Origin: a virus
Lineage: Duplodnaviria; Heunggongvirae; Uroviricota; Caudoviricetes
Length of the DNA: 64,000 bases
Reading direction: 5' to 3' (one strand)
Virus record (IMG/VR): IMGVR_UViG_2875703104_000004
Below are positions 2,847 through 42,833 of the stretch, piece after piece. The stretch's first letter is position 1. Every line of letters begins with the position of its first letter. The position numbers and the translations under genes are program-made. The notes under the pieces were generated by a model. The model did no database searches and was not told the DNA's origin. It saw only the letters and a list, made by a program, of their open reading frames with translations.

Positions 2847-2974
2847 AGTCTCGATATTAGCTGATAACCCAATACCTGAGTTATTCACTGACTCCGAATC
2901 TGTTACGTTTCTGCCTTTATTGCGATACGTAGTATCCCCTTAATTTACACCCGCTTTGTCTGCGAGGTGGGGTT

Positions 2975-3190
2975 ATGAAATCCATGGATAAGTTAACAAC
3001 GGGTGTCGCCTATGGTACCTCAGCAGGTAGTGCCGGGTACTGGTTTTTACAGTTGCTCGATAAAGTCACGCCCTCACAGTGGGCGGCAATAGGTGTGCTG
3101 GGTAGCCTGGTATTTGGCCTGCTGACGTACCTGACAAACCTTTATTTCAAGATTAAAGAAGATAAGCGCAAGGCTGCGAGAGGTGAATAA
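2975..3190 (+). CDS. essD: Phage 21-type pinholin (S21-like, 71 aa)
   Basis: [71 protein letters not shown]; two TMDs; directly precedes the endolysin. Confidence 0.9.
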
Positions 3191-3687
3191 TGCCTCCATC
3201 ATTACGAAAAGCCGTTGCTGCTGCTATTGGTGGCGGAGCAATTGCTATAGCATCAGTGTTAATCACTGGCCCAAGTGGTAACGATGGTCTGGAAGGTGTC
3301 AGCTACATACCATACAAAGATATTGTTGGTGTATGGACTGTATGTCACGGGCATACAGGAAAAGACATCATGCTCGGTAAAACGTATACCAAAGCAGAAT
3401 GCAAAGCCCTCCTGAATAAAGACCTTGCCACGGTCGCCAGACAAATTAACCCGTACATCAAAGTCGATATACCGGAAACAATGCGCGGCGCTCTTTACTC
3501 ATTCGTTTACAACGTGGGTGCTGGCAATTTCAGAACATCGACGCTTCTTCGCAAAATAAACCAGGGCGATATCAAAGGCGCATGTGATCAGCTACGTCGC
3601 TGGACATATGCTGGCGGTAAGCAATGGAAAGGTCTCATGACTCGTCGTGAGATTGAGCGTGAAATCTGTTTGTGGGGTCAGCAATGA
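3190..3687 (+). CDS. rrrD: SAR endolysin (R21-like lysozyme, 165 aa)
   Basis: Gly/Ala-rich N-terminal signal-anchor-release domain, lysozyme body; ATG overlaps holin stop. Confidence 0.9.
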
Positions 3688-4145
3688 ACAGAGTAACCGC
3701 GATTATCTCCGCTCTGGTTATCTGCATCATCGTCTGCCTGTCATGGGCTGTTAATCATTACCGTGATAACGCCATTACCTACAAAGCCCAGCGCGACAAA
3801 AATGCCAGAGAACTGACGCTGGCGAACGCGGCAATTACTGACATACAGATGCGTCAGCGTGATGTTGCTGCGCTCGATGCAAAATACACGAAGGAGTTAG
3901 CTGATGCGAAAGCTGAAAATGATGCTCTGCGTGATGATGTTGCCGCTGGTCGTCGTCGGTTGCACATCAAAGCAGTCTGTCAGTCAGTGCGTGAAGCCAC
4001 CACCGCCTCCGGCGTGGATAATGCAGCCTCCCCCCGACTGGCAGACACCGCTGAACGGGATTATTTCACCCTCAGAGAGAGGCTGATCACTATGCAAAAA
4101 CAACTGGAAGGAACCCAGAAGTATATTAATGAGCAGTGCAGATAG
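3684..4145 (+). CDS. rzpD: i-spanin Rz
   Basis: [40 protein letters not shown]...; N-terminal TMD plus coiled coil; ATGA overlap with endolysin stop. Confidence 0.85.
3904..4086 (+). CDS. rzoD: o-spanin Rz1 lipoprotein, embedded in +1 frame of Rz
   Basis: 60-aa ORF inside rzpD; lipobox LVVVGC; Pro-rich mature part. Confidence 0.85.
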
Positions 4146-4176
4146 AGCTGCCCATATCGATGGGCAACTCATGCAA

Positions 4177-4470
4177 TTATTGTGAGCAATACACACGCGC
4201 TTCCAGCGGAGTATAAATGCCTAAAGTAATAAAACCGAGCAATCCATTTACGAATGTTTGCTGGGTTTCTGTTTTAACAACATTTTCTGCACCACCACAA
4301 ATTTTTGCTGCATCGACAGTTTTCTTCTGCCCAATTCCCGAAACGAAGAAATGATGGGTGATGGTTTCCTTTGGTGTTACTGCTGTAGGTTTGTTTCCAA
4401 CAGTAAACGTCTGTTGAGCACATCCTGTAATAAGCATTGCCAGAGCGGCAGAAAACAACATTTTTTTCAT
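4177..4470 (-). CDS. borD: Bor lipoprotein (serum-resistance moron)
   Basis: MKKMLFSAALAMLITGCAQQTFTVGNKPTAVTPKETITHHFFVSGIGQKKTVDAAKICGG...; lipobox LITGC; lambda Bor position between Rz and cos. Confidence 0.9.
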   Translation of the reverse strand: MKKMLFSAALAMLITGCAQQTFTVGNKPTAVTPKETITHHFFVSGIGQKKTVDAAKICGGAENVVKTETQQTFVNGLLGFITLGIYTPLEARVYCSQ

Positions 4471-4639
4471 CTTATTATCCTGCATTGTTAAAAACGGCAG
4501 AATCCTATGTGACAACAATTAAACGATAGTTAAATGGATTGATGAAAATTAAAACTACACAGGTGGGCTCAGACTATTGGAGGAAGTTGGGGACACTCAG
4601 AATCCTGTGGAATGAAATAAACCGGTCTATCCGTCCATT

Positions 4640-4810
4640 ACCCTTTTAGCTGCGCTGTATCGTCGCCGTATTCCCGCATTAACCATGACCGTAGCCCGAC
4701 GGGGAATTCCTTCTGCGTGAGTGTGCGGGAATAATTAAAAACGATGCACACCGGGTTTTTACCGCGTTAATGATTCGCGGGTTTATCCCGGTGCGATGGT
4801 GGAAGAAACA
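4640..4810. repeat. Conserved non-coding segment shared with 44800-44990 and partly with 25435-25510
   Basis: ~85% identical blocks incl. CGTATTCC(C/T)GCATTAAC and GGTGCGATGGTGGAAGAAAC; flanking genes differ after the shared block. Confidence 0.5.
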
Positions 4811-5360
4811 GGAAGCTGTATTACAGAAAGTGCTACTACTGTATCCCGATGCGATGTATGTAATGTGAGTCAGATAATGGCACAGGATGTGGTGATGTGG
4901 CAGTCTGGAACACAGGATATATTGTCAGAATAAGACCCGTAGGAATAAAAATGAAAAGACGCCTTTTACTACTTTTTCTGTTATCTGTCCTGGCAGTGGG
5001 ATGCTCGCAGCAAAAAGCTGATGAGCCCCGGCAATTAGTGACGGTGTATCCACGATATCCGGAATATGCTGCAGCAAATTATATCAAGGGGCTGGTTGAG
5101 GTTAAGTTCGATATTGGTGCTGATGGGACTGTGACACGGATCGTTTTTCTCCGCTCAGAGCCTCATAATTTGTTTCGTGATGAAGTGGTGAAGGCCATGG
5201 CGAAATGGCGATTTGAAAAGAATCGCCCCTGTCAGGGAGTGAAGAGACAATTTATCTTTACGCCGTCACGTCCTTGATGCTTCCAGGTAGAGAGGGGCTG
5301 GAAGCAGGAGAAAAATGAAAGAGCCAGCGGTTATATTTTTGTCATGGCTGACGAGGAATG
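4733..5360. repeat. ~630-bp block duplicated at 25435-26060 (stf 3' end + lipoprotein gene)
   Basis: Near-identical apart from a T4/T5 homopolymer difference (one N in each copy); copy here ends at the N at 5361. Confidence 0.7.
4951..5277 (+). CDS. Prophage lipoprotein with TonB C-terminal-like domain (109 aa)
   Basis: ATG 4951 with RBS; signal peptide + lipobox LAVGC; motif YPRYPEYAAANYIKGLVEVKFDIGADGTVTRIVFLRSEPHNLFRDEVVKAMAKWRF resembles TonB_C. Confidence 0.6.
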   Translation: MKRRLLLLFLLSVLAVGCSQQKADEPRQLVTVYPRYPEYAAANYIKGLVEVKFDIGADGTVTRIVFLRSEPHNLFRDEVVKAMAKWRFEKNRPCQGVKRQFIFTPSRP

Positions 5361-5483
5361 NGGTAAACGACGCACTTGTGCCGGCACATAATAGCAAGCA
5401 CCATAATAGATCAGATTCGATTCTTGCTGTAAGTGATAATTATTCTCGTTTTCGGGTCCTTTCCGTCGATCCAACAGGTTACG

Positions 5484-5495
5484 GGGCGGCGACCT
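5484..5495 (+). other. Lambda-type cosN cohesive-end sequence GGGCGGCGACCT (cos region ~5440-5600)
   Basis: CAGGTTACG/GGGCGGCGACCT/CGCGG...TTTATGAAAATTTTT matches lambda cos junction, ~180 bp upstream of Nu1. Confidence 0.75.
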
Positions 5496-5671
5496 CGCGG
5501 TTTTTCACTATTTATGAAAATTTTTCAGGGAAAATCGTGTCGGTACTTCTCGAATATAACTTTTTGTTTTTTTTAATATTGCATCCGTAAAGGTCCGACA
5601 TGAAAGTGTCCGAAAATGCCTTTTTCTGGCGTTTTCATGTCGGGCCTTGTATTTGATAATGGGTTGTTTTC

Positions 5672-6220
5672 ATGAAGGTTAATAAAAAGAGGCTTGCCGA
5701 AATTTTCAACGTGGACCCGCGGACGATTGAACGCTGGCAGTCTCAGGGACTCCCTTGCGCCTCCAAAGGTAGTAAGGGCATTGAATCTGTATTTGATACT
5801 GCCATGGCAATTCAGTGGTATGCGCAGAGGGAAACTGATATCGAAAACGAAAAGCTCCGCAAAGAACTGGACGATTTGCGTGCGGCAGCGGAGTCAGATT
5901 TACAACCCGGCACCATTGACTATGAACGCTACCGGCTCACAAAAGCGCAGGCAGATGCGCAGGAACTGAAAAATGCCCGTGAAGACGGAGTAGTGCTGGA
6001 AACTGAACTGTTTACCTTCATTCTGCAACGTGTGGCACAGGAGATTTCGGGGATACTTGTGCGTGTGCCGTTGACATTACAGCGTAAATATCCGGACATT
6101 TCACCATCACACCTTGATGTGGTGAAAACTGAAATCGCGAAAGCCTCCAATGTTGCAGCTAAGGCCGGTGAAAACGTGGGCGGGTGGATCGATGATTTCA
6201 GACGCGCAGAAGGCAGCTAA
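5672..6220 (+). CDS. nu1: Terminase small subunit Nu1
   Basis: [28 protein letters not shown]...; lambda Nu1-like HTH N-terminus. Confidence 0.9.
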
Positions 6221-24730: not shown

Positions 24731-24745
24731 ATTTGTGGAGTGAAT

Positions 24746-25570
24746 ATGGCAGTACAGATTTCAGGCGTGCTGAAAGACGGTGCAGGAAAACCGATACAGA
24801 ACTGCACCATTCAGCTCAAAGCAAAACGTAACAGCACCACGGTTGTGGTGAACACGGTGGCCTCAGAAAATCCGGATGAAGCCGGACGTTACAGCATGGA
24901 TGTCGAGTATGGCCAGTACAGCGTTATCCTGCTGGTTGAAGGTTTTCCGCCTTCACATGCCGGGGCCATCACCGTGTATGAGGATTCTAAGCCGGGGACA
25001 TTGAATGATTTTCTGGGCGCTGCAACAGAAGATGATGTTCGTCCGGAGGCACTGTATCGTTTTGAAAAGATGGTGGAAGAGGTGGCACGCAACGCTGAAG
25101 CCGCCTCTCAGAGCGCAGCGGCAGCAAAGAAATCAGAAACAGCAGCGGCATCGTCCAGGAATGCGGCGAAAACATCAGAGACGAATGCAGGTAACAGCGC
25201 GAAAGCGGCAGCTTCTTCAAAAACAGCCGCACAAAACGCAGCAACAGCGGCAGAACGTTCAGAGACAAATGCCCGTGCGTCAGAAGAAGCCTCCGCAGAC
25301 AGTGAAGAGGCTTCCCGCCGTAATGCAGAGTCAGCCGCTGAAAATGCCGGAGTCGCCACCACAAAAGCGCGGGAGGCCGCAGCAGACGCAACAAAGGCCG
25401 GGCAGAAAAAGGATGAGGCTCTGTCGGCAGCGATAATTAAAAACGATGCACACCGGGTTTTTACCGCGTTAATGATTCGCGGGTTTATCCCGGTGCGATG
25501 GTGGAAGAAACAGGAAGCTGTATTACAGAAAGTGCTACTACTGTATCCCGATGCGATGTATGTAATGTGA
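24746..25570 (+). pseudogene. stf: Side tail fibre stf, N-terminal ~230 residues only
   Basis: MAVQISGVLKDGAGKPIQNCTIQLKAKRNSTTVVVNTV... as lambda Stf N-terminus; 3' end is the bor-cos conserved block. Confidence 0.75.
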
Positions 25571-25652
25571 GTCAGATAATGGCACAGGATGTGGTGATGT
25601 GGCAGTCTGGAACACAGGATATATTGTCAGAATAAGACCCGTAGGAATAAAA

Positions 25653-25979
25653 ATGAAAAGACGCCTTTTACTACTTTTTCTGTTATCTGTCCTGGCAGTG
25701 GGATGCTCGCAGCAAAAAGCTGATGAGCCCCGGCAATTAGTGACGGTGTATCCACGATATCCGGAATATGCTGCAGCAAATTATATCAAGGGGCTGGTTG
25801 AGGTTAAGTTCGATATTGGTGCTGATGGGACTGTGACACGGATCGTTTTTCTCCGCTCAGAGCCTCATAATTTGTTTCGTGATGAAGTGGTGAAGGCCAT
25901 GGCGAAATGGCGATTTGAAAAGAATCGCCCCTGTCAGGGAGTGAAGAGACAATTTATCTTTACGCCGTCACGTCCTTGA
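25653..25979 (+). CDS. Second copy of TonB C-terminal-like lipoprotein
   Basis: Protein identical to 4951-5277. Confidence 0.6.
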   Translation: MKRRLLLLFLLSVLAVGCSQQKADEPRQLVTVYPRYPEYAAANYIKGLVEVKFDIGADGTVTRIVFLRSEPHNLFRDEVVKAMAKWRFEKNRPCQGVKRQFIFTPSRP

Positions 25980-26101
25980 TGCTTCCAGGTAGAGAGGGGC
26001 TGGANGCAGGAGAAAAATGAAAGAGCCAGCGGTTATATTTTTGTCATGGCTGACGAGGAATGATGGAAGAAGGCGTTGTATGCCACACAACGCCTCACTG
26101 T

Positions 26102-26280
26102 TCATTTCTTCTTTTTCTCTGGTGGAACCCGATGAATAAGAGTTGCACTGGTTTCCGATGAGATGGCGATATACTCGGGCAAAGTATGCTGGCAGTTTTC
26201 CAACTGGTCAAAAATACCTGCTCTCGTCTGTTGCAATGCCTGCAGCATGCGGCGGCAATGCGCCTTGCTTTTACTAACCA
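26102..26280 (-). CDS. Hypothetical small basic protein (59 aa)
   Basis: Minus ATG 26280 with GAGGAAGGAAAG RBS; MVSKSKAHCRRMLQALQQTRAGIFDQLENCQHTLPEYIAISSETSATLIHRVPPEKKKK. Confidence 0.35.
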
Positions 26281-26342
26281 TCTTTCCTTCCTCTATCAGT
26301 CGCTGCGTGAACTCATCATGNAATACCAGGTAAATGCGGATG

Positions 26343-26592
26343 TTATCGGTTTTGGCTACGCAGCATAGTACAAAACGGACAGGTGCATCCCGGGACGGGG
26401 GAGGCGTCACATGTCCCTGTGATGGTTGTTCCGGGTAATGNACTGTGTGGGGCATAAAAATGTCCGATAATTTTACTTTCTACCGCAGTTAGTTGATTCG
26501 TTGGTCCTGGTAGCACATTGGGCGAGGATTTAAATGCCAGGCAACTGAAGGATGATGTNGCAAGGGAGATAGCGAGAATATTTCTGATTTTC
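26343..26592 (-). CDS. Hypothetical small secreted Cys-rich peptide (83-aa precursor)
   Basis: Minus ATG 26592; signal peptide MKIRNILAISLxTSSFSCLA; mature part has CDASPVPGCTCPFC; two N inside. Confidence 0.4.
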
Positions 26593-26607
26593 ATTTGATG
26601 ATGCCTC

Positions 26608-26909
26608 TGTGTGAAATGACGGTAAACGACGCACTTGTGCCGGCACATAATAGCAAGCACCATAATAGATCAGATTCGATTCTTGCTGTAAGTGATAATT
26701 ATTCTCGTTTTCGGGTCCTTTCCGTCGATCCAACAGGTTACGGGGCGGCGACCTCGCGGTGTGAAATGACGGTAAACGACGCACTTGTGCCGGCACATAA
26801 TAGCAAGCACCATAATAGATCAGATTCGATTCTTGCTGTAAGTGATAATTATTCTCGTTTTCGGGTCCTTTCCGTCGATCCAACAGGTTACGGGGCGGCG
26901 ACCTCGCGG
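26608..26909 (+). repeat. Tandem duplication (2 x ~151 bp) of the cosQ-cosN region
   Basis: Unit TGTGAAATGACGGTAAACGACGCACTTGTGCCGGCACATAAT...GGGGCGGCGACCTCGCGG occurs twice. Confidence 0.85.
26893..26904 (+). other. cosN cohesive-end sequence of copy 2 (duplicate at 26743-26754)
   Basis: GTTACG/GGGCGGCGACCT/CGCGGGTTTTCGCTATTTATGAAAATTTTT as lambda cos. Confidence 0.75.
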
Positions 26910-38296: not shown

Positions 38297-40988
38297 TCTT
38301 GTTATTGACCTGAGTCTGGATGCTGTCCGTTTCGATGAGCAGATGAGCCGGGTAAGGCGTCATTTTTCAGGTCTGGATACCGACGCCAGAAAAACCGCCA
38401 GTGCTGTTGAACAGGGCCTGAGCCGCCAGGCGCTGGCTGCACAAAAAGCCGGGATTTCCGTCGGGCAGTATAAAGCGGCCATGCGAACCCTGCCCGCACA
38501 GTTTACGGATATCGCCACGCAGCTTGCCGGTGGTCAGAATCCCTGGCTGATCCTGCTGCAACAGGGCGGTCAGGTGAAGGACTCCTTCGGCGGGATGATC
38601 CCCATGTTCAGGGGGCTTGCCGGTGCGATCACCCTGCCGATGGTCGGGGTCACCTCGCTGGCGGTGGCGACAGGTGCGCTGGTGTACGCCTGGTACCAGG
38701 GAGATTCCACGCTTTCAGCGTTTAATAAAACCCTGGTTCTTTCCGGTAATCAGTCCGGACTGACTGCCGATCGCATGCTGACGCTCTCCAGAGCCGGACA
38801 GGCCGCAGGGCTGACGTTTAACCAGGCGAGTGAGTCACTGGCAGCCCTGGTGAATGCCGGTGTGCGTGGTGGTGAACAGTTTGATGCCATCAACCAGAGT
38901 GTCGCGCGTTTTGCTTCTGCATCCGGTGTGGAGGTGGACAAGGTTGCAGAGGCTTTCGGAAAACTGACCACTGACCCGACGTCGGGGCTGATTGCGATGG
39001 CGAAGCAGTTCCATAACGTGACGGCGGAGCAGATTGCGTATGTTGCTCAGTTGCAGCGTTCCGGCGATGAAGCCGGGGCATTGCAGGCGGCGAACGAGGC
39101 CGCAACGAAAGGGTTTGATGACCAGACCCGACGCTTGAAAGAGAACATGGGCACGCTGGAAACCTGGGCAGACAGGACAGCACGGGCATTCAAATCCATG
39201 TGGGATGCGGTGCTGGATATTGGTCGTCCTGATACCGCGCAGGAGATGCTGATTAAGGCAGAGGCCGCGTTTAAGAAAGCGGACGATATCTGGAATCTGC
39301 GCAAGGATGATTATTTTGTTAACGATGAAGCGCGGGCGCGTTACTGGGATGATCGTGAAAAGGCCCGTCTTGCGCTTGAAGCCGCCCGAAAGAAGGCTGA
39401 GCAGCAGAGTCAACAGGACAAAAATGCGCAGCAGCAGAGCGATACCGAAGCGTCACGGCTGAAATATACCGAAGAGGCGCAGAAGGCTTACGAACGGCTG
39501 CAGACGCCGCTGGAGAAATATACCGCCCGTCAGGAAGAACTGAACAAGGCACTGAAAGACGGGAAAATCCTGCAGGCGGATTACAACACGCTGATGGCGG
39601 CGGCGAAAAAGGATTATGAAGCGACGCTGAAAAAGCCGAAACAGTCCGGCGTGAAGGTGTCTGCGGGCGATCGTCAGGAAGACAGTGCTCATGCTGCCCT
39701 GCTGACGCTTCAGGCNGAACTCCGGACGCTGGAGAAGCATGCCGGAGCAAATGAGAAAATCAGCCAGCAGCGCCGGGATTTGTGGAAGGCGGAGAGTCAG
39801 TTCGCGGTACTGGAGGAGGCGGCGCAACGTCGCCAGCTGTCTGCACAGGAGAAATCCCTGCTGGCGCATAAAGATGAGACGCTGGAGTACAAACGCCAGC
39901 TGGCTGCACTTGGCGACAAGGTTACGTATCAGGAGCGCCTGAACGCGCTGGCGCAGCAGGCGGATAAATTCGCACAGCAGCAACGGGCAANNNNNNNNNN
40001 NNNNNNNNNNNTGGCGCATAAAGATGAGACGCTGGAGTACAAACGCCAGCTGGCTGCACTTGGCGACAAGGTTACGTATCAGGAGCGCCTGAACGCGCTG
40101 GCGCAGCAGGCGGATAAATTCGCACAGCAGCAACGGGCAAAACGGGCCGCCATTGATGCGAAAAGCCGGGGGCTGACTGACCGGCAGGCAGAACGGGAAG
40201 CCACGGAACAGCGCCTGAAGGAACAGTATGGCGATAATCCGCTGGCGCTGAATAACGTCATGTCAGAGCAGAAAAAGACCTGGGCGGCTGAAGACCTGCT
40301 TCGCGGGAACTGGATGGCAGGCCTCAGGTCCGGCTGGAGTGAGTGGGAAGAGAGTGCCACGGACAGTATGTCGCAGGTAAAAAGTGCAGCCACGCAGACC
40401 TTTGACGGTATTGCACAGAATATGGCAGCGATGCTGACCGGCAGCGAACAGAACTGGCGTGGTTTCACCCGTTCTGTGCTGTCCATGCTGACAGAGATTT
40501 TTCTGAAGCAGGCGATGGTGGGGATTGTCGGGAGTATCGGCAGCGCTATTGGCGGGGCTGTTGGTGGCGGCGCATCCGCGTCAGGCGGTACAGCCATTCA
40601 GGCCGCTGCGGCGAAATTCCATTTTGCAACCGGAGGATTTACGGGAACCGGCGGCAAATATGAGCCAGCGGGGATTGTTCACCGTGGTGAATTTGTCTTC
40701 ACGAAGGAGGCAACCAGCCGGATTGGTGTCGGCAACCTGTATCGTCTGATGCGCGGGTATGCGGAAGGTGGTTATGTCGGCGGTGCCGGAAGTCCGGCGC
40801 AGATGCGGCGGGCCGAAGGTATTAATTTTAATCAGAACAATCACGTGGTGATTCAGAACGACGGTATCAACGGACAGGCGGGGTCGCAGCTGATGAAGGC
40901 GGTGTATGACATGGCCCGCAAGGGGGCACAGGATGAACTCCGGCTGCAGTTGCGTGATGGCGGTCTGTTATCAGGGAGCGGTCGATGA
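38277..40988 (+). CDS. H: Tape measure protein H (copy 2), inflated by an N-gap with duplicated flanks
   Basis: 903-aa ORF; 21 N at 39991-40011 flanked by repeats of ~130 bp. Confidence 0.85.
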   Translation: MSQPVGDLVIDLSLDAVRFDEQMSRVRRHFSGLDTDARKTASAVEQGLSRQALAAQKAGISVGQYKAAMRTLPAQFTDIATQLAGGQNPWLILLQQGGQVKDSFGGMIPMFRGLAGAITLPMVGVTSLAVATGALVYAWYQGDSTLSAFNKTLVLSGNQSGLTADRMLTLSRAGQAAGLTFNQASESLAALVNAGVRGGEQFDAINQSVARFASASGVEVDKVAEAFGKLTTDPTSGLIAMAKQFHNVTAEQIAYVAQLQRSGDEAGALQAANEAATKGFDDQTRRLKENMGTLETWADRTARAFKSMWDAVLDIGRPDTAQEMLIKAEAAFKKADDIWNLRKDDYFVNDEARARYWDDREKARLALEAARKKAEQQSQQDKNAQQQSDTEASRLKYTEEAQKAYERLQTPLEKYTARQEELNKALKDGKILQADYNTLMAAAKKDYEATLKKPKQSGVKVSAGDRQEDSAHAALLTLQXELRTLEKHAGANEKISQQRRDLWKAESQFAVLEEAAQRRQLSAQEKSLLAHKDETLEYKRQLAALGDKVTYQERLNALAQQADKFAQQQRAXXXXXXXXAHKDETLEYKRQLAALGDKVTYQERLNALAQQADKFAQQQRAKRAAIDAKSRGLTDRQAEREATEQRLKEQYGDNPLALNNVMSEQKKTWAAEDLLRGNWMAGLRSGWSEWEESATDSMSQVKSAATQTFDGIAQNMAAMLTGSEQNWRGFTRSVLSMLTEIFLKQAMVGIVGSIGSAIGGAVGGGASASGGTAIQAAAAKFHFATGGFTGTGGKYEPAGIVHRGEFVFTKEATSRIGVGNLYRLMRGYAEGGYVGGAGSPAQMRRAEGINFNQNNHVVIQNDGINGQAGSQLMKAVYDMARKGAQDELRLQLRDGGLLSGSGR

Positions 40989-42467: not shown

Positions 42468-42833
42468 ATGTACCAGATGGAAAAAATCACAACAGGTGTG
42501 TCATACACCACGTCAGCGGTGGGAACGGGCTACTGGTTCCTGCAGTTGCTGGACAGGGTTTCCCCGTCTCAGTGGGCGGCAATAGGCGTGCTGGGGAGTC
42601 TGCTGTTTGNNNNNNNNNNNNNNNNNNNNNAAAAAATCACAACAGGTGTGTCATACACCACGTCAGCGGTGGGAACGGGCTACTGGTTCCTGCAGTTGCT
42701 GGACAGGGTTTCCCCGTCTCAGTGGGCGGCAATAGGCGTGCTGGGGAGTCTGCTGTTTGGGCTGCTGACATATCTGACTAACCTGTATTTCAAAATCAGA
42801 GAGGACCGGCGTAAGGCGGCGCGGGGAGAGTAA
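42468..42833 (+). CDS. Phage 21-type pinholin (copy 3) with dual start MYQM; inflated by N-gap duplication
   Basis: ...[66 protein letters not shown]; 21 N at 42610-42630 with ~130-bp duplicated flanks. Confidence 0.8.

Follow-up and report, generated by a model that had tools for sequence, protein, structure and literature searches.

A lipoprotein with a TonB C-terminal domain in phage-21-like lambdoid prophages and its possible bearing on TonB-dependent entry

What does a phage do with the docking domain of a host energy transducer? This question is raised by a 64,000-nucleotide stretch of DNA from a virus of the Caudoviricetes (IMG/VR record IMGVR_UViG_2875703104_000004; the whole stretch is hereafter called the window), in which a small gene at 4951-5277 on the plus strand, downstream of the lysis genes of a lambdoid prophage, encodes a protein resembling the C-terminal part of TonB. 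A sequence-only reading had described the product as a lipoprotein and proposed that it acts as a decoy in the periplasm, excluding TonB-dependent phages or colicins. The analysis reported here shows that the gene product consists of a lipoprotein signal, a short tether and a complete, monomer-type TonB C-terminal domain, and that the gene is a moron of phage-21-like lambdoid prophages.

The lipoprotein, its domain and its gene

The gene and its parts are as follows.

4951-5277, plus strand: TonB_C lipoprotein gene, copy 1; ATG start, 108 codons and a stop (list of open reading frames, ORFs, and translation)
4951-5004, plus strand: signal peptide and lipobox (MKRRLLLLFLLSVLAVG-C18); PS51257 pattern match, with Ser19 at +2
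5020-5259, plus strand: TonB C-terminal domain, residues 24-103, equivalent to E. coli TonB 151-230; alpha1-beta1-beta2-alpha2-beta3
4941-4944, plus strand: Shine-Dalgarno AGGA, 6 nt 5' of the ATG, read from the sequence

The phage 21 record has a ribosome-binding site annotated at the same place as this AGGA. The N-terminus of the protein, MKRRLLLLFLLSVLAVGC followed by SQQ, satisfies the PROSITE PS51257 lipobox rule, with Cys18 and Ser at +2. It comprises the charged residues K2, R3 and R4, an LLLLFLLSVL core and the lipobox LAVG-C18. Both the lipoprotein assignment and the lipobox LAVGC of the sequence-only reading are thus borne out, while its length of 109 residues has to be corrected to the 108 of the translation. 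By the established +2 sorting rule of lipoproteins, Ser19 (no Asp) predicts sorting to the outer membrane. The tether between Cys18 and the start of the ordered part is only 7-8 residues long and has no Pro-rich region. The mature part is a 90-residue globular TonB_C domain, which ends at the equivalent of TonB residue 235, so that the last four residues of TonB are absent.

Profile searches assign this mature part to the TonB_C family. It matches Pfam PF03544 with 49.2 bits (cut-off 24.6; E=7.3e-13) and TIGR01352 with 47.4 bits (cut-off 27.1), and the TonB_C signature given in the sequence-only reading is therefore significant in a hidden Markov model (HMM) search. Similarly, phmmer aligned the protein with the solved C-terminal domains of E. 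coli TonB at E ~1e-14 and without gaps over residues 24-103, where identity to E. coli TonB 151-230 is 40%. The equivalents of TonB Y163 and P164 (the YP motif), F180, G186, F202, W213 and F230 are kept, and Y215 is replaced by Phe.

The predicted structure leads to the same family. An AlphaFold2 model built from a 39-sequence alignment had a mean predicted local distance difference test score (pLDDT) of 86, with a pLDDT above 96 in the domain and low confidence in the signal peptide and tether; an earlier run with six sequences gave a pLDDT of 61 and was set aside as too weak. When the model was compared with the PDB in Foldseek, the top matches were all TonB C-terminal domains (1U07 chain A, E=5.6e-8). 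They included TonB bound to BtuB (2GSK chain B), with a root-mean-square deviation (rmsd) of 1.0 Å and a template-modelling (TM) score of 0.92, and TonB bound to FhuA (2GRX chain C), with an rmsd of 0.9 Å. FusB, Pseudomonas TonB and others ranked lower, with TolA domain III far down, and a fold search of BFVD gave no significant viral structural match. The beta3 strand, which is the edge that pairs with the Ton box in TonB, is present in the phage lipoprotein. Evidence from HMM, solved structures and fold search thus upholds the structural part of the sequence-only reading, that of a lipoprotein with a TonB C-terminal domain in its mature part.

The gene has also been kept in working order. 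Against a second allele with about 72% DNA identity, the ratio of nonsynonymous to synonymous substitution rates (dN/dS) is 0.12 at dS=1.46, over 88 nucleotide differences, and 0.10 for the domain alone; both alleles keep 108 residues and the lipobox. The same 327-nt gene is carried by prophage Perceval of strain LF82 (LF82_160 = PERCE_65), where it is listed as a moron expressed 8-fold above the prophage background in LB (PMC9928086, Table 1). Over all conditions in the supplement of that study, the values (apparently log2) were 5.0-6.6 for the TonB-like gene, 2.3-3.7 for Rz and 2.3-4.3 for the terminase genes; in the macrophage comparison, the log2 fold change of the TonB-like gene was 0.26, and bor was up by ~7 log2 (PMC9928086). 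The gene, expressed above both neighbours, is thus transcribed independently in the LF82 lysogen, at a modest constitutive level, and the low dN/dS, the kept length and the transcription in lysogens together indicate a working gene and not a fragment.

About 300 bp upstream are conserved together with the gene between the diverged alleles, and one conservation island in this region may contain a promoter element.

4923-4931, plus strand: candidate extended -10 element TGTCAGAAT (TGTTAGAAT in the 72% allele), proposed from conservation

Across the alleles the consensus of this element is TGT(C/T)AGAAT, which could be an extended -10 promoter; a sigma-70 scan of 4100-5750 called no plus-strand promoter upstream of the gene, including at 4923-4931. 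No strong intrinsic terminator was found after the gene in a scan of the same interval, and the hairpin at 5278-5306, past the stop codon, has no U-tract (z=-1.8). An Rfam scan of 4100-5700 gave nothing near threshold.

Further upstream, a non-coding block at ~4650-4815 is more than 90% conserved with respect to the 72% allele, exceeding the coding sequence, and its 59-nt core (4731-4789) also occurs near the right end of lambda-like phages at 93-95%. This block, which has no Rfam match and a predicted RNA fold with z=-2.5, could represent a recombination boundary or serve in regulation. The small RNA svsR was considered for it and rejected: svsR lies at cI and is unrelated (PMC12803456). The phage 21 record lists a hypothetical protein for a 45-residue ORF at 4796-4933 (and 25498-25635). 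Indels shift the frame of this ORF in the 72% allele and neither PHROGs nor PADLOC has a match for it, so that it is probably not coding.

The protein has numerous relatives outside phages. An exhaustive HMMER scan returned 2795 TonB_C proteins at E<=1e-3, and the best matches include many single-domain proteins of 105-130 residues, aligned end to end at 35-46% identity. In all 19 short relatives that bear a lipobox, the +2 residue is S, T or A and never D. Relatives labelled Serratia and Erwinia by their source records have ordinary signal peptides and no lipobox; judging from these signals, they would be soluble periplasmic TonB-domain-only proteins. The closest relatives in reference genomes are from Klebsiella and Raoultella (45-49% identity) and from Erwinia and Serratia (37-39%). 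Where flanks were readable (Klebsiella, Raoultella and Serratia, among them Raoultella planticola and Serratia grimesii), the setting is chromosomal, with neighbours such as lacZ-lacI and a Spy/CpxP-like gene, ycgN/dsbB/nhaB, or a GNAT gene and a toxin-antitoxin pair. No relative with readable flanks lies in a prophage, or beside genes for a TonB-dependent transporter (TBDT) or exbBD. Exported TonB-domain-only proteins thus form an enterobacterial family, of which the coliphage gene is one branch.

Prophage setting, second copy and catalogue status

At copy 1, the gene order is S/R/Rz/Rz1 (2975-4145), bor (4177-4470, minus strand), the TonB-like gene, cosN, Nu1 and A. The end of the gene is 207 bp from cosN and 395 bp from Nu1 (5672), with A at 6150.

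3672-4145, plus strand: Rz i-spanin gene with embedded Rz1 o-spanin gene (3904-4086); phrog_13, E=3.8e-78, and phrog_3198, E=3.7e-30
4177-4470, minus strand: bor/iss lipoprotein gene, the neighbouring moron; Bor-like phrog_260, E=4e-59, and phage 21 and Nissle annotations
5484-5495, plus strand: cosN cohesive end GGGCGGCGACCT of prophage 1; the linear phage 21 record ends at window position 5483

The 12 bases at 5484-5495 are the lambda-type cohesive end. The first prophage of the window is essentially phage 21. Positions 2974-5360, from the S gene through the TonB-like gene, are 97.7% identical to it, and after a 558-bp deletion relative to phage 21, positions 5362-5483 are the same as the final 122 bp of phage 21. 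A single N at 5361 stands exactly at the deletion junction; the deleted segment held two small hypothetical ORFs, which copy 2 keeps. The last 250 residues of the prophage J protein are 100% identical to phage 21 J, and the native receptor of phage 21 is LamB, which is not TonB-dependent (PMC11336670).

The position between the lysis cassette, which the gene directly follows, and the packaging genes recurs in three phage lineages and two host genera. The first lineage is that of the lambda/21-type cos phages; the second comprises the HNH and HK97-type-terminase prophages of O157 and Stx1a phages; and the third is represented by Klebsiella phage ST13-OXA48phi12.4, which carries a 41% identical relative with its lipobox present.

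In ExPEC-type (extraintestinal pathogenic) strains such as E. coli CEA601S and Nissle 1917, the gene lies in a prophage or prophage remnant, together with iss. In both strains the element has a porin gene of the ompC/nmpC type, placed between Q and the lysis genes; the CEA601S element and Perceval of LF82 also carry the sitABCD iron/manganese transporter. Several envelope- and metal-related morons are gathered in one element in this way.

The second copy lies within a longer repeat.

25653-25979, plus strand: TonB_C lipoprotein gene, copy 2; tblastn 100% over 108 residues, and ORF list
4731-5361, plus strand: 631-bp repeated block, copy 1, with the gene, 220 bp upstream and 84 bp downstream; alignment and exact extension
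25433-26063, plus strand: 631-bp repeated block, copy 2; alignment and exact extension

As the sequence-only reading had noted, the two genes encode 100% identical proteins; the blocks around them are identical except for one N each, and tblastn across the window found only these two TonB-like copies. The location in a bor-cos moron zone given in that reading holds for copy 1, where bor and then cosN are in place; copy 2 is outside a normal bor-cos setting. Before copy 2 stands the N-terminal part of a truncated side-tail-fibre gene (24740-25570), which extends into the repeated block at 25433. The stretch 25433-26742 is colinear with the right end of phage 21 and is followed by a second cos/Nu1/A module, ~90% similar in Nu1/A. 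The join at 25433 is a phage-21-like prophage tail end fused to the right end and cos of this second lambdoid module. A query spanning the junction between the side-tail-fibre gene and the repeated block matched 0 of 5426 complete E. coli genomes, and six apparent matches at 89% were rejected as differently ordered pieces from a deleted prophage.

Other features of the window concern its assembly. A perfect 150-bp tandem duplication (26609-26909; 2.0 copies, 100% match) precedes the second Nu1. Each unit holds the cos sequence GGGCGGCGACCT, which gives the second module two cosN 150 bp apart where the first prophage has a single one, and this duplication could be real or an assembly artefact. 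A third Rz-like stretch at 44147-44514, 86% identical to 3745-4111, implies a third lambdoid lysis region in the window; tblastn found no TonB-like gene near it. Several structural genes, such as J, are split. There are 21-base N runs at 39991-40011 and 42610-42630 and 58 Ns in all, including scattered single Ns, which marks the window as a draft-quality assembly.

In public annotation the gene is not new. Phage 21 has the 631-bp block with 100% identity, its gene CPT_21_73 being annotated as 'TonB C-terminal domain protein'. So does phage ev017, where the product is called 'Partial tonB-like membrane protein encoded within prophage CP-933N' or 'TonB family protein', and Perceval has the block at 99.8% identity, with the product named 'TonB fragment'. 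The Prokaryotic Genome Annotation Pipeline (PGAP) names the identical protein 'TonB family protein' (WP_000830178), for instance in Nissle 1917, beside iss. With the two alleles taken together, the gene occurs in 1617 of 5426 complete E. coli genomes (~30%), in full length in 1612; 1225 carriers have the allele of the window (at least 95% identity) and 392, such as O157:H7, the second one (~72-73% DNA identity). Among phage records, only 15 of 50,697 contain it. Our literature search found the phage TonB-like lipoprotein at the level of annotations and transcriptomes, and no functional study of it. What is new relative to the searched literature is that the gene encodes an intact, selected, full TonB C-terminal domain with a predicted lipid anchor and not a 'fragment'; this word and 'Rz-like spanin', the label of its PHROG family, are misleading for such a lipoprotein.

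What the lipoprotein might do

In the mechanism that we favour, Cys18 would be lipidated and the protein sorted by Lol (Ser at +2), and the domain would hang from the inner leaflet of the outer membrane, as the sorting rule and the short tether suggest. This would place it at the periplasmic face, where TBDTs expose their Ton boxes. There, its beta3 edge would pair with Ton boxes, either on the receptors or on group B colicins as they enter; in a second version, its partner would be the C-terminal domain of the host's own TonB. Either pairing would compete with energised TonB, and the low constitutive expression in lysogens would thereby dampen the TonB-dependent entry of foreign phages, colicins, microcins and sideromycins. 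Adsorption of the carrier phage itself would stay unaffected, because this phage uses LamB. For the same reason, together with the identity of its J protein to that of phage 21, any exclusion would be aimed at other phages or at colicins. We advance this competition with energised TonB tentatively, as a reading that has a reasonable chance of being right and about as much chance, or somewhat more, of being wrong.

Three lines of evidence make such a decoy more plausible: the fold superposes on Ton-box-bound TonB, inhibition of transport by a periplasmic TonB domain is reported, and T5 Llp offers a precedent. According to the summary in PMC9841981, an overexpressed periplasmic TonB domain inhibits TonB-dependent iron import (Howard et al., 2001), and a Ton-box pentapeptide lowered colicin killing and phi80 infection (PMC9841981). 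Phage T5 jams FhuA with Llp, an outer-membrane lipoprotein on the periplasmic side, and the authors of that study propose that small phage lipoproteins commonly jam TBDTs (PMC9586334).

Several observations weigh against the decoy. A general TonB inhibitor should be costly to iron-limited hosts, yet the gene is constitutive and common in ExPEC, in Nissle 1917 and in siderophore-rich lineages. Iron regulation is not indicated either, the best Fur-box match on both strands of 4400-5000 reaching 11/19. Since the carrier uses LamB, the logic of self-exclusion is absent. In the domain, TonB R158, Q160 and R166, which we take to be Ton-box contact or suppressor positions, are replaced by Thr31, Tyr33 and Tyr39. 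PADLOC-DB 2.0 contained no family at E<=1 for the lipoprotein or for two flanking small ORFs. The chromosomal relatives and those with plain signal peptides suggest a physiological role apart from phage defence, and the orientation of the gene, which is that of the late operon, leaves a role late in infection compatible with the data.

A broader version of the competition model is the 'Ton-box cap', in which the outer-membrane-tethered domain would occupy Ton boxes or host TonB and give broad, receptor-independent protection. We consider it rather unlikely. It would cover TonB-dependent phages, group B colicins, microcins and siderophore-antibiotic conjugates (albomycin, cefiderocol). It would also make such protection a trait of ~30% of E. 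coli, including EC958, Nissle 1917 and O157:H7, and in Klebsiella, Serratia and Erwinia TonB-dependent uptake would be restrained from within by the chromosomal relatives, both lipoproteins and soluble proteins. If the phage lipoprotein does compete for Ton boxes, this would be a new exclusion mechanism, in which a docking domain borrowed by a phage from its host is re-anchored to the opposite membrane and a whole class of outer-membrane gateways is blocked instead of one receptor. As the carriers, ~30% of complete E. coli genomes, include pathogens and the probiotic Nissle 1917, it could influence the host range of therapeutic phages, the gut ecology of colicins and microcins, the acquisition of iron and how susceptible cells are to siderophore-conjugated antibiotics; TonB researchers would also gain a natural dominant-negative tool. 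Should the decoy prove false, what is left is a correctly annotated moron, and the practical gain is one of annotation only.

An alternative of similarly low probability is that the protein has a role in envelope tethering, or another role away from the Ton box. It would bind peptidoglycan or an envelope protein other than a receptor and aid robustness or host fitness as bor/iss does, leaving TonB-dependent transport unaffected, the phage having borrowed the domain from a chromosomal lipoprotein family of enterobacteria. The C-terminus of TonB has been reported to associate with peptidoglycan, Lpp and OmpA. The adjoining bor/iss gene is consistent with this alternative, as are the relatives at 37-49% identity that sit in the chromosomes of Klebsiella, Raoultella and Serratia beside unrelated genes. 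So are the expression, constitutive and responsive neither to iron nor to macrophages, and the exchange of R158, Q160 and R166, if these positions set Ton-box specificity as we presume. However, the fold is closest to receptor-bound TonB and retains the Ton-box-pairing beta3 edge, and the profile libraries (Pfam, NCBIfam) found no peptidoglycan-binding motif.

Still less probable is a function late in infection. Here the lipoprotein would be mainly a product of the Q-antiterminated late transcript that acts at or just before lysis, and not a lysogenic-conversion factor; it might close the dying cell to superinfection and to TonB-dependent traffic, or modulate disruption of the outer membrane. 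The gene has the orientation of the late operon, directly follows the holin-endolysin-spanin cassette in all three lineages and both host genera, and has no strong terminator past it, only the hairpin without U-tract; in addition, PHROGs files its family under lysis. Nevertheless, in the uninduced lysogen the TonB-like gene is transcribed well above the lysis and terminase genes on either side, a complete Rz/Rz1 pair is already present in the prophage, and the interval between lysis genes and cos is a classical moron slot, as with bor. As for PHROGs, the 'Rz-like spanin' label of phrog_1267, which the lipoprotein matches at E=5e-43, seems due to signal-peptide similarity only: the true Rz1 (3904-4086) is a member of phrog_3198, and its match to phrog_1267 (E=1e-4) is confined to residues 5-49, the signal-peptide region. 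The label is probably a clustering artefact that would mislead automatic phage annotation. We reject the spanin reading itself, since the prophage has its own Rz/Rz1 and the mature part is a globular TonB_C domain, not a short proline-rich one.

The wording 'partial tonB-like' or 'TonB fragment' in the CP-933N, ev017 and Perceval annotations, and the coverage of only the C-terminal third of TonB, would suit a captured piece of bacterial tonB carried passively as a non-functional remnant, but this is hardly credible and is effectively refuted by the selection and expression data (dN/dS of 0.12 across 88 differences, a lipoprotein signal grafted on and conserved in both alleles and the relatives, a conserved Shine-Dalgarno and upstream region, transcription in lysogens and full length in 1612 genomes), and the 40% identity to E. 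coli TonB excludes a recent capture.

Comparison with known systems

The nearest known structure is the C-terminal domain of E. coli TonB (150-239; 1U07, 1XX3, 2GSK, 2GRX), with which the phage lipoprotein shares a common alpha-beta-beta-alpha-beta fold, 40% ungapped identity and an rmsd of ~1 Å. TonB has an inner-membrane helix and a proline-rich spacer, whereas the phage protein has neither, and is thus unable to couple to ExbB/ExbD or to transduce energy; instead it has a lipoprotein signal and a predicted anchor in the opposite, outer membrane. As a TonB energy transducer it was rejected by the equivalog profiles NF008080-NF008084, which gave 44.8-69.2 bits against cut-offs of 265-448 and matched over the last ~80 profile positions only. 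The engineered periplasmic TonB fragments of Howard, Herrmann, Stratilo and Braun (2001, J Bacteriol 183:5885), as described in PMC9841981, also consist of an exported C-terminal part without the energy-coupling N-terminus and are a dominant-negative precedent. From what that summary gives of them, those constructs were E. coli TonB itself, soluble and overexpressed, whereas the phage protein is natural, diverged, predicted to be lipid-anchored, and expressed at a low constitutive level.

With regard to exclusion lipoproteins, T5 Llp attaches to a TonB-dependent transporter from the periplasm and jams it (PMC9586334); a similar block of TBDT entry would be expected here. The Cor family members compared (phi80, N15, HK022 and T1) are likewise superinfection-exclusion lipoproteins acting on FhuA. 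The sequence-only reading had likened the phage protein to Cor and Llp in their action on FhuA. That comparison is weakened: the own-receptor logic does not carry over, J being that of phage 21 with LamB as receptor, and neither does homology. The only Pfam family found was TonB_C, the top PDB folds were TonB and TolA, and Llp was absent from the 50 matches listed. The genes of Cor and Llp lie downstream of a receptor-binding gene (J/pb5) and concern the phage's own receptor, FhuA, whereas the TonB-like gene comes after the lysis cassette of a carrier that uses LamB. The presumed target also differs, a generic Ton box as opposed to the plug of one receptor, and the Cys11-Cys58 disulphide of Llp has no conserved equivalent, Cys94 of the phage protein being Arg in several alleles. 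The favoured model would accordingly be an Llp/Cor-like outcome reached through a borrowed host domain, not a protein of the Cor family.

Lambda Bor/Iss resembles the phage lipoprotein in being a small outer-membrane lipoprotein moron, expressed from the prophage and located in the slot between lysis genes and cos. The two differ in sequence, which is unrelated (phrog_260 as against phrog_1267), in strand, and in regulation, since it is bor that is induced by ~7 log2 in LF82. Pectobacterium FusB (7ZC8, 9HI3), the sixth-ranked structural match at 36-38% identity, illustrates a TonB_C fold with a partner other than a Ton box, as its C-terminal domain binds a substrate protein. FusB keeps an inner-membrane anchor and works as an energy transducer; this anchor is absent from the phage lipoprotein. 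By descent, the phage lipoprotein is thus a member of the TonB family, and by lifestyle an outer-membrane lipoprotein moron.

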